A DNA stretch of 64,000 nucleotides. It comes from Lama guanicoe (taxonomy: Eukaryota). Below the pieces are notes generated by a model, which was given only the letters and a program-made list of their open reading frames with translations, did no database searches and was not told where the DNA came from. This document shows positions 8,851-59,210 of this stretch, in pieces (within the stretch, counting starts at the first letter, position 1; every line of letters starts with the position of its first letter). A program made the position numbers and the translations under genes. The stretch is taken from assembly GCA_013239625.1 (NCBI GenBank), contig MU057102.1, forward strand, positions 496,001 to 560,000, given 5' to 3'.

Positions 8851-9054
8851 GTGATCCCTGTGGGCTGTCCTAGGACTGGCCCCAGGCAGACAGCCTGGAG
8901 TTGGTTCATTCCTTCAAAAATAGTTTTTCAAGTTCCTTCCATGTGCTCTGCGTTAGGGACCTAACAGGCTGCCAGCAGCCTCTATCCTAACCTCATGGAC
9001 TTATAATCTGGGAAGACGGGAAGACAGACACCTTATCATTAACCACAATGTGAA

Positions 9055-14484: not shown

Positions 14485-14635
14485 NNNNNNNNNNNNNNNN
14501 NNNNNNNNNNNNNNNNNNNNNNNNNNNNNNNNNNNNNNNNNNNNNNNNNNNNNNNNNNNNNNNNNNNNNNNNNNNNNNNNNNNNNNNNNNNNNNNNNNNN
14601 NNNNNNNNNNNNNNNNNNNNNNNNNNNNNNNNNNN
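14485..14635. other. Assembly gap (151 N)
   Basis: Run of N seen directly. Confidence 1.
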
Positions 14636-14814
14636 GTGGGTGAGTGATTGGACAGTCTCATGACTAGGCTTTTGTTTGTGAGTAATTTGAAGTCCTTCAT
14701 AGATTCAAATGACTCCTAGGCTTAGGCAGGTAGGGCGACCTGGACCTCATTGGTTCTTGTAGGAGGCCGCATGGCCCAGGGCCACAAACAAGGGATCAGA
14801 GCTGAGGAGATGTG

Positions 14815-19000: not shown

Positions 19001-19280
19001 CTGAAGGTGAATCTTTTTTTTTCTTCTTCATTGTCCCACTTTATTTCTCAGTTAAGCCCGACTCAACGGGATCATTTTGAGGACAAGAACTGTTCTACAT
19101 TTGAATTATCGGTGCAGAAAAATAATTTCTTTTTATTTTTTTATTGAGTTATAGTCAGTTTACAATGTTGTGTCAGCTTCTGGTGTACAGCACAGTGCTT
19201 CAGTCACACATGAACACACACATACTTGTGTTCAGATTCTTCTCTGCCGTGAGCTACACAAGATACTGAAGGTGAATCTT
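19001..19280 (-). mobile_element. 5'-truncated lineage-specific L1 with ~100-bp 3' transduction and 15-bp TSD
   Basis: Exact direct repeat ctgaaggtgaatctt at 19001-19015 and 19266-19280; L1 3' end at ~19126-19270 (ttattgagttatagtcagtttacaatgttgtgtca...); unique segment at ~19023-19125; second T-run at 19014-19022. Confidence 0.9.
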
Positions 19281-20123
19281 CTGATGAGACAGATGTGTTT
19301 GTTCCTCTGCAGCCTGGCACTCAGGCACGTGGTATCCCACGCCGTTCCCCTCCAGCACCAAGGGTGCAACTCCCCGGGACCTGGGCGCAGGTCCAACTCA
19401 GAGCCAGAAATGATGCCAGAAGCAAGGTGAGGGAGAGGTGGATGTGTCCCTCAGCAGGAAACATGGGGTCCCATGGGCATTCAGTGACACTTCCTGGTCC
19501 CATCATGAGCTTAGGACCAGCTGTGAAATAAAACACAGGAGGCAAACATCAGAGATCACGTGACTGCTTTATTATTGTCTTGGGAGACTGGGAGGATGCA
19601 GTTTTAGGGCTGTAGCCAAGAGGAAGTGCTCAGTCTCTCAGCCCTGTCACTGTTCAAGCACGGCCCTTCTCCCTCCTGCACTGCCAGAGCAGCTGGAACA
19701 AACCCAGCCTGCAGGCCACAGCCACAAGCAGCAAAGGAAGCATGAGGAGCAAGGAGGAAGTGGTCCCACCTCTCAGAAAGGAACGTTATGCAAAGCCTGG
19801 GAGGATGGTCTTGTAGACTACTGGGTCGCAGTCCCTGGCTCCTTGCCTGACCCAGCATCTCTGTGCAGGGAGTGCTTGCTGAATGGAGGCACTGTGAGTG
19901 TCCCTCCCCCTCTACCTGTCCCAGGCCCAGCTCCAAGGCCCTTCCTCCAGGAAGCCTTCCTGGTCCTGCAGAGAGTTCTGTGTTTGAGCATGGCTCACTA
20001 TGACTTTGAGAAAGCTGTCTCTGGGTTGAGAATGGGGGGGCCAAGTCGTCTGTGGCCAAAGCATTATGATCTGAAGCTTGTTGCTCCAGGGCGGTCTCTA
20101 GGGGGTGCCTCCTGTTCAGTTGT

Positions 20124-20619: not shown

Positions 20620-20835
20620 GGGTAATGAAGTGTCTCCTGTGAGGTTTCAGGCAAAGTAATCTGCCTTAAAGGATGGCCTGAGTGCAGTAATTGGCCGCTG
20701 AGGCGGGCAGTGATTGCAAGGTTAATTGTTACTAACCCTCGGAGGTGTGAGCAGGGGGTGGAGCTAATGTGATATCTTCAGTTGTAAATTTCAGTTGCCA
20801 AGGCAGAGAGACGATGCAGTTACCTTGAAGATGGA
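20620..20835. promoter_or_regulatory. Candidate conserved non-coding element
   Basis: Non-repetitive block with clustered TAAT cores (gtaatg, gtaatc, gtaattgg, ttaattg, ctaatg) and an NFI half-site ttgccaa. Confidence 0.35.
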
Positions 20836-23449: not shown

Positions 23450-23692
23450 CTTAAAACCTTCAAGGGATGTCTTATTGCCCTTGCAGCGACTCTGAGCACA
23501 CTGACGGTGCCTCAGTACTCAGCTGTCTCCCCCACCCCACACGTCAGTTCCTGGAGTGTCACTGTGCCCCATCCTCTCTTGTCTCTGGGTTTCTACTGCT
23601 GCTGGCTCCTCTGCCTGGAACACCTTTCTCCCCCTTATTCCTTCATCTTCTTCCTATCTTTTCTCTGGCTGATTCCTTCTTTTTCTTCAAGG
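23450..23692 (+). mobile_element. L2 LINE, left part (interrupted by L1)
   Basis: cttaaaaccttcaa...gctcctctgcctggaacacctttc...ggctgattccttc. Confidence 0.7.
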
Positions 23693-24490
23693 TCAGTCTA
23701 GCTAAAGGTTTATTATTTCTATTTATTTTCTCCAAGAACCATTGTTTTGGTTTCATTGATTTCTTTCTGTTGCTCTTCTGTCATCTATTCCACTTATTTC
23801 TGCCCTGGTTTTTATTATTTCCTTCCTTCTACTCACTTAGGGTTTAGTTTTCTCTTCTTTTTCTAGCTTCTTGAGGTGGAGCCTAGATGGTTGATTTTAG
23901 ATTTTTTTCCTTTCTAAGCATTTAAAGCTACAAATTTTCCTCCTCACACCACTCTAGCTGCGTCCCATGTGGTATGATGCATTGCGTTTCATTTTCATTC
24001 ACCTTTCTAATTTCCTGTGTGATTTCCATTTTGATCCCCAGGAAACGTGTAAATGTGCTGTTTATTTTTCAGTGTTTGAAGGTTTCTTAAATTTCCTTCT
24101 GTTGTGATCTCACTGTGGCCAGAGAACGTATTTGGTATGATTTTGACCCTTTTATACTTACTGGGCTTGCTTTAGAGCCTAGCATGTGATCTCCCCTGGA
24201 GCGTGTTCCCTGTGCCCTGGAAAAGCGTGTGCTTTCTGCTGCTGTCGGTTCTGGAAATGCCACTTAGGTCAAGTCAGTTGACAGTGCTGCTCAGGTCTTC
24301 TGTATCCGTACTGATCTTCTGTCTGGTTGGATTAACCATTACTGAAAGTGGATTGAAATCTCCAACTGTGATCATTGAGTCTTCTTTTTCTCCTTTTGAT
24401 TCTGTCAGTTTTGCTTTATGTGTATTAGGGCTGTGTTGTTAGGTGCATAGACATTTGCACTTGTTTTATCTTCCCAAAGGACAGACCCTT
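23692..24490 (-). mobile_element. Old L1 (L1M) internal ORF2 fragment, endonuclease region, decayed
   Basis: The minus strand translates to ANVYAPNN (~24435-24458) and MITVGDFN (~24352-24376), matching the L1 EN motifs NIYAPN and IVGDFN; T-rich plus strand. Confidence 0.9.
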
Positions 24491-24733
24491 CTTCTCCTTC
24501 AGCCTCACTTCAATGGCCCTTTTCCAGGCAGACCTTCCCAGATCTCAGATGGTACCAGTTTCCCCTGCCGTGAGTCCCCATCATAACATTCATCAAACTG
24601 TGCTATCACTGCTGGAAAGATCCGGGAGGCCGGGGAGCATGTCAGACCTGCTCAGCAATTCATGCTCAGCACCTAACATAGGCTCACACATGGCCGCGGG
24701 TGCTCTGTAAGTATTTGTTGATCAAATGAGTAA
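24490..24733 (+). mobile_element. L2 LINE, right part with 3' tail
   Basis: cagcacctaacatagg...gtgctctgtaagtatttgttgatcaaatgagtaa. Confidence 0.7.
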
Positions 24734-25375: not shown

Positions 25376-25494
25376 TGCTTATTTCCCCTCTTCCCATCTC
25401 CCCTGAGAGGTGAGCGTGCCACTCTGATTCTGTTGGTATGCGTGGATACCTTCCTCCCAGATCAAAGCCCCACATGTTTAAACCACAGCATCTA

Positions 25495-26030
25495 AAATGG
25501 AGATGAAAAATTATGTAGTAACTACGTTTTAAGGCAAATTAACCTTGATAAGATCTTTAATGTCATGTATTAGACTATTTTCCCTTAGTAATGCATTAAA
25601 CTGTCAAACCCGATATGATCATGCAATTAATGAGATTATACACGATGTAAATTTCAATTCATTATTACAGTGTCTGCGCTAATAGACTTGCGATGAATAC
25701 CCAGAAACCAGGCTAGTTCAGAGGGGCAACTTTTTGCAAATTGTGTGAAATGAACAGGCAGAGGCAACCAGTTTCGATGAACTGGAGTGAGGATGATTTC
25801 TGCAACTGTCTGATGTACCAAGATGAGCTGTAAAGGTGGGATTAATTGAGAGAGTCCTGCGTGTAAGGCCAAGGAGCTGACATGAGATAAGCTTGCTTCC
25901 CGGGTGGCCCTTTCGGAATTCCTGGGGAAATTACTTATCGTTAATGGCATCTTCAGGTACCTCATTCTTCCAGCGCTGCTGGCTTTCTCACGGGAGTGAC
26001 GAAATTGGAGTTCATTCAGAGAAAGCAAAT
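25495..26030. promoter_or_regulatory. Candidate highly conserved enhancer with homeodomain dimer sites
   Basis: Repeat-free AT-rich island with retained CpGs; TAATGCATTA at 25589-25598, TAATGAGATTA at 25628-25638, two TGTCA, AGATAA. Confidence 0.6.
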
Positions 26031-31814: not shown

Positions 31815-32290
31815 TGCTCTTTCTTTAAAAATCTAATTAAAAGCTGTAAAACTTGACCATATAGGCATGACTCTTGGCTCCTAATTCCAGGTGCAACAAT
31901 TTGGACGGTTGAAGGAGGGGAGAGAGCAGATAACAGACTCCTATGTCCTGAAAGTTTGTCTAAAATGTCTGCCGATGGTGAGGCCGATGGGCGGTGAGGT
32001 CCCTGGGCTGGTTGTCAGCGTGGCCTGGCGCCGGCCAGGCTCTGGGGGATGGGACAATTAGCTAATGAACTGGATTGAAGGAGGTGCTAATTCCACACTT
32101 GAAGTGTTAGTAATTGCTAACCGTCAGGACTTCTAATTGAGTGATAATTTTGTTCTTTCAAGGTGACAACCTTCCAGAGGCGAGGGTTTTTAAGAAGATA
32201 TGTGAGATAATACGAGCTCTGTTGGGGGGCAAACAAAGTAATAAAAATCCTTTCTTGGTTTGGAAGGAGAAGTTTAATTTTGGCATGATG
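31815..32290. promoter_or_regulatory. Candidate conserved enhancer with homotypic TAATT cluster
   Basis: TAATT at 31834, 31882, 32088, 32111, 32134, 32145 and 32275; palindrome attagctaat at 32057-32066. Confidence 0.5.
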
Positions 32291-33119: not shown

Positions 33120-33650
33120 TGACTTTCAATTTAATTTTGAACTATTTGCTTTTATGTATTAAGACTTTAAACCAGCGCACACTGATCCATGCCCTCTAAG
33201 AGGCACCTAGATTTTTTTAAGCTACGGATGGAGATCTCAGTCTGACTGTCCGCTGAGTGGAGGGGTGAGCTTGAAAACTGTGACATTAATTTTTCTAAAA
33301 GGAAGTTTTGGGCTGTAATGAGGTTTTTTTCATGGCCCAGTATGAGGTCAATTTTTGTGACTGTCTGATGGGCAATAGAAAAGACGGCTTGTTTTCTCTC
33401 AGTTGGTCATTAACACTGTGTTTTCAATTATATCATTGAGGTCTTTGGGGTTCGTCTTCATTATTTCTTTTCTCCATCGGCCCGGAACTGAGAGCAGGGA
33501 GTTAAAGGCCCCACATGAATCCTACCATCTCCTTGCTCCTCTTTCTCCTGCACCCGTTGTGTTTCTGCTGAGTGCATGTTGATGCCGTGTGATTTGGTGA
33601 CAGAACATTCATAACCGTTGTTCCTTCCTCCTGCATCACAGCGTCTGCAT
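33120..33650 (-). mobile_element. Very old L1 (L1ME/L1M5-type) ORF2 fragment
   Basis: tggcccagtatgaggtcaatttttgtga...gaaaaga...actgagagcagggagttaaag...gatgccgtgtgatttggtg parallels the L1 piece at 24180-24460. Confidence 0.65.
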
Positions 33651-33699
33651 CGCGCAGCGCGTTTCCCAGGTGCCCACGGCCAGCCGGACGCTGGGCTGG

Positions 33700-33815
33700 G
33701 TGCTTGTTTCCTGGGTACAGAAGCAGTGCACTCACTGCAGAACAGCTAGAAAATGTAGAAAGTTCACGGAATAAAGTAACAGAGATGCCTCTCTGTCTTG
33801 GGACGGTGGTCACAA
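33700..33815 (-). mobile_element. L1ME-type 3' end fragment
   Basis: acagaagcagtgcactcactgcagaacagctagaaaatgtagaaag. Confidence 0.5.
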
Positions 33816-39493: not shown

Positions 39494-39866
39494 TCACCAT
39501 CATCCCCACCATCACAATCACCATCGTTATCAACATCACCACAATCATCACCACCATCCTCATCACATCTTAATCACCACCATCTTCACCATCTATATCA
39601 CCATCCTCAGCCTCATCACCATTAACATCACCATCACTATCACAGTCACCACCACCATCATCACCATCATCATCACCCCCGCCACTACTATCATTACCAT
39701 CCTCATCAGCATCTACATCAGCACCATCACCACCGCCATCACCATTATCACTGTCATCACCACCAGCACCATCACCACATCATAATTACCATCCTCATCG
39801 TCATCACTGTCACTGTCTTAATCACCCCCACCCCCCAAATCTTCATAATCACCACCACCACCACCT
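39494..39866 (+). repeat. Degenerate (CAC/CAT)n trinucleotide repeat, ~370 bp
   Basis: Continuous caccatcatcaccacc-type array directly after the MIR tail. Confidence 0.95.
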
Positions 39867-41260: not shown

Positions 41261-42489
41261 GTCAGTGGCTTTCAAATGTTTTTAAGATCCAGAACCATTT
41301 CCTCAAAAAGGATCTCAAATGGAGCCTAAGAGGTAAAACAGGGACAGCTGGGATCCCTTTGTTTGACGCGGAGTGAGGGCTGTTGTCCCCACCCGCTGGC
41401 CCCGCGCATGGGCGTGGTGGAGCCCCAGGCCCCCAGGGTGGGGATTGGGACCCCAGGTGTGTGGGCAGTTGTGGCCCTGGGACCTGGGCCCTGACAGACC
41501 TGCTATTCGCTGTCACGCTTGCAGCAGCCAGGGCTCCGTTACTGATAATAAATGACGTGGACGGCTTTGCCGGTGCTCCGGGGAGGAGAAAACCAGTCAC
41601 CTTCTCAGCAGGTGTCACATACGTTCACAGCCTCCCCGTCTGCCTTACTTGGCAGGGACACGGATGCGGCTGCCAGGGTTGGCCTCTCCCCCGCCATCAG
41701 ACAAAGCATGCCCGGGGCTGTCAGTGTGGCTTGCCGTCGACAGGTACAGGAAGTGGGCTCTCTGTCCCTGGGTCTCGTTTGTCACCGTGACGTCCATCAG
41801 CACAGGCACGCAAGTCTCTGCCTGAGGCAAACGCAGAGGGTCTGGCTTGGGTGAGGCCCGTCTGAGCATCCCTGCTCCGTTGTCCTCAGCATCTCCTGTC
41901 CTGCTGTGGACGGGCGGGAAAGGCGGGCAGCCTCCCTTCAGTCTTGCTCTTCTTATCTTCCTGCCCTTCCCTCCTCCGCTTCCTTGTCTCTGAGACGTCG
42001 TCCATGCCCCTCACCCTGGCAGCTCCAGCCTTTGTCACCATCGGTGGGCTGTGTGCTCCCTCGTCTGGGCTGGTTGTTCACCTCCCCCAAGATGGTCTGT
42101 TCTGCGGGGACGGGGAGCTGTCTGGTCCACTGCTGTGTCCCCAGCACAGAGCCGGGAGCATGGCAGGTCCTCAGTCTTACTTCATTCGTTTGTTCACTTA
42201 TTCTCTGAAGCATTTATTGAAGTCACAGTTGGGGAGCCACTGGGTTGAGCCTGCCAATCCCTTTTTATAGTTTGGGAAGCTGTGGCCCAGGCCACTGGGA
42301 GATGAGGGGAGACCTTGGCTCAAGTCCATGAGCAGGTTAACGGCAGAGCTTGACCCAGCTGCAGGGACTTAAAGTCACAGAAGCAGTCTTCCAGGGAGGA
42401 TGTAATTTGTGCATCCAGGTTCCCAATCCAGCTGCCCCAGAGTAGGGGGTAATCCTTTCCAAGCTGCAGCGGATGTTAGAAGAGCCCCA

Positions 42490-53489: not shown

Positions 53490-53875
53490 AGCAGCATCAC
53501 AGCTTATCCAATTACCTTTTATTACCATAAACAGGTCTGAAAAACACCAGCTCTTCCAGGTAGACACACAAGCATTGTTTTGAACAGCAAAGGCTAAAAG
53601 AAAAAAAAATCCCACAATTTCATTAAAATTTTTACTTACAGTGATTATTAAAAAGGAGTGAAGAGTGAAATTAAAATTCAGTCATGTCAGGTCATGAGAA
53701 ATGGAGAGTAAACAATATTTTTAAACGATAGCCGAGGTGGAGAAGTCTACCAGGACCCACCTATTAAAATTCACATTATCTCTTAAACAGATTTGATGTA
53801 AGAATGCCGTTTTCCATAGATCGGTAATGTTCCTACATTTATTTCCTGCCGACTGATTTTGATTTATAGGGGTCC
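53490..53875. promoter_or_regulatory. Candidate conserved non-coding element
   Basis: Strongly AT-rich island with no repeat match; ccaatta, ttttatta, cataaa, attaaaa repeated, gtaaaca, tgatttata. Confidence 0.45.
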
Positions 53876-59100: not shown

Positions 59101-59210
59101 TTTTGGGGGGGTGTTGTAACTGGTTTTACTTATTTATTTAGTAGGGGTCCTGGGGATCGAACCCAGGACCTGGTGCAAAGAGAGGCATGTGCTCTACCGC
59201 TGCCCCTTCT
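59101..59210 (-). mobile_element. tRNA-derived SINE of camelid type (Vic-1-like)
   Basis: Minus strand reads agcggtagagcacatgc...aggtcctgggttcgatccccagg (B-box GGTTCGATCC), then aaataaataagtaaaacc...cccccccaaaa. Confidence 0.8.

Follow-up and report, generated by a model that had tools for sequence, protein, structure and literature searches.

The window, by which we mean the whole 64-kb stretch of DNA that was analysed, is mammalian-type non-coding DNA with a GC content of 56%. None of the 30 long open frames searched (out of 117 listed) has a Pfam match below E 0.01, a crude exon scan returned 13 candidates, all of them unconvincing, and no Rfam family reaches its gathering score. By Pfam on the long frames, the exon scan and Rfam, no gene is identified near the insert described below within the 64-kb window. 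An assembly gap of 151 N at 14486-14636 marks the assembly as a draft. At 39494-39777 there is a degenerate (CAC/CAT)n array, with 47 copies of a 6-nt unit, which yields a spurious His-rich frame. Four AT-rich islands with many TAAT/ATTA motifs (20680-20800, 25480-25700, 32050-32270 and 53560-53870) stand in the GC-rich background; our impression is that they resemble conserved non-coding enhancer elements.

Several other stretches of the window read as repeats. Two T-rich regions, 23680-24460 and 33150-33700, look like ancient, degraded L1 remnants in minus-strand orientation; one frame near each has no Pfam match. Sixteen fragments picked by hand (790-930, 8880-9040, 24590-24730, 42050-42200 and 12 more) form what appears to be one old repeat family, at least 11 of the 16 being recovered when left out of the profile built from the others. 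Presumably they are LINE-2 3' ends. The sole young-looking SINE noticed in the 64 kb is a short SINE-like element at 59120-59210 (plus strand) with a tRNA-like body and a TTTA-type tail, which resembles the camelid tRNA-derived SINE and so agrees with a presumed camelid origin of the window. No target-site duplication (TSD) of at least 7 bp was found for it, and ARAGORN was negative. A camel SINE appears by name, as vic-1, in PMC3531059.

The subject of this report is an insert of 250 bp (19016-19265), which is read on the minus strand and whose parts are listed in Table 1. Its GC content is 36%, compared with 62% and 56% in the two 500-bp flanks, and the composition changes sharply at both ends.

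Table 1. Parts of the insert and its target site, in the order of the element (window coordinates)
Feature	Position	Strand	Basis
5' TSD copy (element orientation), 15 bp	19266..19280	-	exact repeat
3' end (3' UTR) of a 5'-truncated L1, 120 bp, 42.5% GC	19146..19265	-	match to pig L1 consensus
First A-rich tail, 20 nt, 17/20 A, two AATAAA	19126..19145	-	sequence; inferred tail of the source element
Non-L1 segment, 95 nt, 38% GC, candidate transduced flank	19031..19125	-	single copy in window
Second AATAAA, candidate polyadenylation signal of a read-through transcript	19040..19045	-	sequence; use inferred
Terminal A-tail, short, G-interrupted, 11/15 A, continuous with the first two A's of the 3' TSD	19016..19030	-	
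3' TSD copy, 15 bp	19001..19015	-	exact repeat
Inferred first-strand nick ATCTT/CT, between 19280 and 19281	19276..19282	+	

The two TSD copies, CTGAAGGTGAATCTT, are identical at 15 of 15 positions, and the repeat cannot be extended by a single base on either side. It begins directly after the A-tail and ends at the point where the L1 is truncated. We took a TSD of about 7-20 bp around the whole insert as the mark of an L1-mediated insertion by target-primed reverse transcription, and a perfect 15-bp repeat encloses this one; its length also falls inside the range of 12-18 bp quoted in PMC12809410. Such a repeat is hardly expected by chance. With up to two mismatches allowed, the 15-mer matches the window three times where chance predicts 0.15, and none of 100 shuffles reaches three. 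Perfect repeats of at least 15 bases at a spacing of 50-1000 bp number two in the window, namely the TSD pair and one in the low-complexity array at 39.5-39.8 kb. Among the 26 T-runs of six or more on both strands, the insert alone is flanked by a repeat of more than 9 bases (15; the next has 9). A sequence-only reading of this DNA had already claimed a perfect 15-bp TSD here, followed by about 125 bp of L1 3' end, a first A-rich tail and about 100 bp of non-L1 sequence; all four stand where it placed them, with the exact lengths given in Table 1.

Comparison with pig elements supports the assignment of the 120-bp part as an L1 3' terminus. Over 19149-19211 it is identical, counted by eye, at 49 of 63 ungapped positions to the pig L1 consensus terminus listed before L1B1 (PMC6501411, Additional file 1), and an L1-like stretch elsewhere in the same file matches at 52 of 70 positions with one gap, again by eye. 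On these counts by eye the binomial tails of the matches are below 1e-13, or 8e-11 when the 10-base search seed is excluded. All six pig termini seen, out of about 51 subfamily ends, finish with an A-rich tail that lies at most a few tens of bases from the same end point. Further 5', 19212-19265 aligns only loosely with pig L1, and no more L1 sequence was found 5' of 19265. The last 2-4 bases of the 5' TSD match the pig L1 passages too (by eye), an overlap that may be ordinary junction microhomology. The GC content of the L1 part is higher than the roughly 33% estimated by eye for the matching pig stretch. No other homologue of the L1 part was found in the window by local alignment (1254 tiles).

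The pig L1A and L1B 3' termini share with the insert this identity and an end before an A-rich tail, while the insert is about 22% divergent from them and carries indels further 5'. Judged by the termini seen, they belong to a related lineage and are not the parent subfamily. For camelid L1 itself, motif searches of article full text gave chance matches only, and no camelid L1 sequence was found in the supplements, as far as available, of PMC4476161 (without file 1), PMC10487017, PMC12849490 and PMC6726744. Short L1 3'-end fragments are common in camel DNA according to a supplementary table of PMC6726744, where the matches listed include at least seven rows of L1-2_Vpa at 73-90% similarity and at least one row of L1-1_Vpa at 97%. 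The likeness of the insert to these camelid elements (Repbase names) lies in the short 3'-end fragments, as judged from the names and similarities in that table only.

We next consider the two tails and the hexamers near them. The AATAAA motifs at 19145-19140 and 19045-19040 were both given correctly in the sequence-only reading, but it missed a third, at 19137-19132 (minus strand) within the first A-rich tail. The inferred transcript would therefore have passed two hexamers before ending, although the one at 19137-19132 may postdate the insertion. In dog L1s, two AATAAA motifs have been suggested to lower transduction rates (PMC13141329). The hexamer at 19045-19040 is followed after 17 nt by a pure A-run (19022-19014), the spacing reported earlier; taking the tail to include the G-interrupted stretch from 19030 shortens it to 9 nt. 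The pure run has 9 nt, of which two are TSD bases, and the terminal tail would fail a strict homopolymer test. An AATAAA followed within 5-30 nt by an A-run of at least seven occurs at this place alone in the window, and an AATAAA at the spacing of this signal arises in 2.4% of 20,000 shuffles.

What is the 95-nt segment between the tails? As one mark of a transduction we took at least 25 bp of non-L1 sequence lying between the L1 tail and the terminal A-tail, inside the TSD, and the whole 95 nt lie in that position. The segment has no second copy in the window: self-BLAST returns the TSD pair and two short chance matches, and local alignment finds no homologue among 1678 window tiles. It is absent from all six pig L1 termini seen, out of about 51 subfamily ends, a comparison confined to pig. 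When six of its 10-mers were compared with the pig repeat file (PMC6501411), five were absent and one occurred in an unrelated context. Searches of the window, GTDB, plasmids, phages and protein sets, a range that contains no mammalian genome, turned up neither a source locus nor a sibling copy. The segment begins with an A/T-rich stretch, as would be expected if it started at the source L1's own target site.

A number of other origins were tried and rejected. For a prokaryotic or phage origin, plasmids gave three and phages five short chance matches, with E 0.07 or worse; in GTDB, taken as a route through host contamination, a 24-mer of the segment and a gapped L1 motif each had no match. As a structured RNA the segment has no Rfam family at the gathering score and three weak matches (E 0.47-8.4). 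Its fold is not unusually stable (z = -1.21; 26 of 200 shuffles are equally stable), and no tRNA gene was found. For a coding origin, a 78-aa frame over the segment has three phmmer matches, all to tandem-repeat proteins with summed scores; two other translated frames have no homologue, and the best Atlas score is 0.81. Pfam gives nothing below E 0.01 for six frames over the insert, the one match being at E 0.074.

Part of the segment, 19046-19097 on the plus strand, scores 1.8-2.0 bits on a profile of the 16 hand-picked old repeat fragments of the window, an idea that arose post hoc. This score is reached by none of 1000 and none of 500 shuffles and by none of 68 GC-matched tiles. On leave-one-out, only 4 of the 16 profiles report 19046-19097, and 5 of the 16 training fragments are missed when left out. 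This stretch may be an old LINE-2-like relic, a resemblance that is weak and unstable. If it is, the segment would be old genomic flank, which fits a transduction and does not refute it. A standard pipeline could discard the segment as masked owing to such a resemblance. Two related ideas were dropped: the segment's likeness to the presumed empty site, at 25 of 1000 shuffles, is equalled in score by 48 of 1678 tiles, and the target site shows no profile match that would place it inside the same old repeat family.

The putative nick, ATCTT/CT, agrees with TTTTT/AA at 3 of 7 positions. In line with the earlier remark that TCTT/CT fits the consensus only loosely, the T-rich priming side is present and the /AA side is missing. 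Two bases beyond the end of the TSD (19276-19284), CTTCT/GA has 4 of 7 matches and a pyrimidine/purine step. It is tempting to speculate that the nick fell at CTTCT/GA and that the primer was trimmed by two bases before priming, which would account precisely for the sequence observed; ORF2p-associated processing of primers is described in vitro (PMC12871754). Variable and non-consensus nicking is also described (PMC12809410), and such nicking, or later mutation of the flank, explains the poor site as well.

The most economical reading of these observations, and probably the right one, is that the insert is a single 5'-truncated L1 made by target-primed reverse transcription and carrying a short 3' transduction. 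An L1 at another, AT-rich locus would have been transcribed past its own AATAAA and A-tail, the transcript ending about 100 nt downstream at the second AATAAA of Table 1. ORF2p would then have nicked the plus strand at or near 19280/19281, the T-rich 3' end priming reverse transcription on the new poly(A). Synthesis would have halted at about 250 nt, having copied 120 nt of the L1 3' UTR, and cleavage of the second strand 15 bp away, with fill-in, would have produced the TSD. Transduction by L1 read-through is a common hallmark of these elements (PMC13141329; PMC13103737). This is also the reading proposed from the letters alone, and it is partly supported: one L1 insertion, the TSD, the L1 terminus, the two A-tails and the spaced second AATAAA all agree with it, while the two hexamers that the inferred transcript passes, the degraded terminal tail and the 3/7 nick count against it. 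The insert cannot code for a protein and is in all likelihood neutral; since no gene is identified near it, no functional effect is indicated.

The date of this probable transduction is less favourable to the earlier account. Retained CpGs had been taken as a sign of youth, a claim that does not survive: the segment has 3 CpG in 95 nt, and 17% of 734 GC-matched 95-nt window tiles have at least as many. The chance that a perfect 15-bp pair survives is 0.55 at a divergence per copy of 2%, 0.21 at 5% and 0.04 at 10%, so that a divergence of a few percent is likely. The case for a recent, lineage-specific event is accordingly weak, with unremarkable CpG, a short and G-interrupted tail and a TSD that would outlast 5% divergence about one time in five. 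The raised GC content of the L1 part and the G-interrupted tail would both fit drift at a GC-rich locus. Of 696 repeats in the camelid casein cluster, 82.3% occur in every one of the four species and 5.7% are limited to a single species (PMC6726744), which makes a family-wide insertion the better prior for a camelid window.

The same anatomy could also arise when the source is not an active L1. If an mRNA or lncRNA terminating at the second AATAAA already contained a dead L1 fragment within its final 250 nt, a truncated retrocopy of this RNA, made in trans, would look the same as a transduction. We consider this unlikely. The L1 part looks worn (42.5% against about 33% GC) next to a perfect TSD, as would suit an L1 fragment that predates the insertion, and the trans-mobilisation of cellular RNAs is established (PMC4476161). 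However, the terminal tail is G-interrupted too, which points to A/T-to-G/C drift after insertion into a GC-rich locus, and short L1 ends are a normal product of 5' truncation. A different possibility is that the 95 nt were captured once, giving an L1 subfamily or a non-autonomous family a longer tail, and then spread in many like copies, so that they are no private barcode. Ten dog copies do share one transduction (PMC13103737), yet the segment is absent from all six pig termini seen, its 10-mers are missing from the pig file apart from the one in an unrelated context, and no second copy exists in the 64 kb; we regard such a family as quite improbable here. Slightly less probable still is a more specific version, in which the L1 end and the 95 nt together terminate a lineage-specific L1 sub-lineage not described before, or a short non-autonomous element, that exchanged its polyadenylation signal for one taken from a flank, possibly from a reversed old LINE-2 relic, and spread in many copies.

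Reverse transcription might instead have started at the 3' end of some unrelated mRNA and then crossed over to the A-tail of an L1 RNA, by template switching or RNA ligation. The A-rich junction would suit such a chimera, and chimeras made by L1 exist (PMC4476161), but the same source describes switching as largely limited to U6/U6atac on the 5' side. No Rfam family matches the insert, and an L1 part at the 5' end with foreign DNA 3' of it is the geometry of read-through. We hold this origin to be very improbable. Hardest of all to credit is an artefact of assembly or a pair of separate events, with a segment that is native or an insertion of its own and a repeat that is coincidence. The draft assembly with its 151-N gap and the non-consensus nick would allow it, whereas the exact repeat stands at both predicted boundaries, no inner TSD surrounds the L1 part alone, the composition shifts sharply at both ends and the gap is 4 kb away.

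The 3' transduction by L1 is reportedly treated in the classic papers of Moran (1999), Goodier (2000), Pickeral (2000) and Szak (2003). Of full-length human L1s about 15% carry a transduction, and of dimorphic dog L1s about 1.8% (PMC13141329); 322 such loci are recorded in a canine pangenome (PMC13103737). With hundreds of catalogued cases in human and dog, the statement in the sequence-only reading that the mechanism is known holds without change. Among the titles and abstract beginnings listed, we found no report or catalogue of camelid L1 transductions, most subscription journals lying outside this coverage. If the transduction is confirmed, the 95 nt would lead back to a single former source L1 of the lineage, and the filled or empty state of the site would provide a clean phylogenetic marker. 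The insert leaves the mechanism as it stands, and would gain greater weight only if the segment proved to mark a family of many copies.

How does the insert compare with other products of L1? It shares with processed pseudogenes and U6/L1-type chimeras a TSD and an A-tail, as a presumed product of L1 ORF2p. In contrast to them, it has no exon junctions and no snRNA 5' of the L1 part (no Rfam family reaches the gathering score, and the three weak matches have E 0.47-8.4), and its foreign part lies 3' of the L1 rather than 5'. With the 3' transductions of human, dog and mouse L1 it shares the entire arrangement of a truncated L1 end, a first A-tail, a non-L1 segment with an AATAAA, a second A-tail and one TSD around the whole; it differs from them in its poor nick site, its degraded tail and a source locus that we infer. 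In this comparison the insert is one further instance of a common and well-described by-product of L1.
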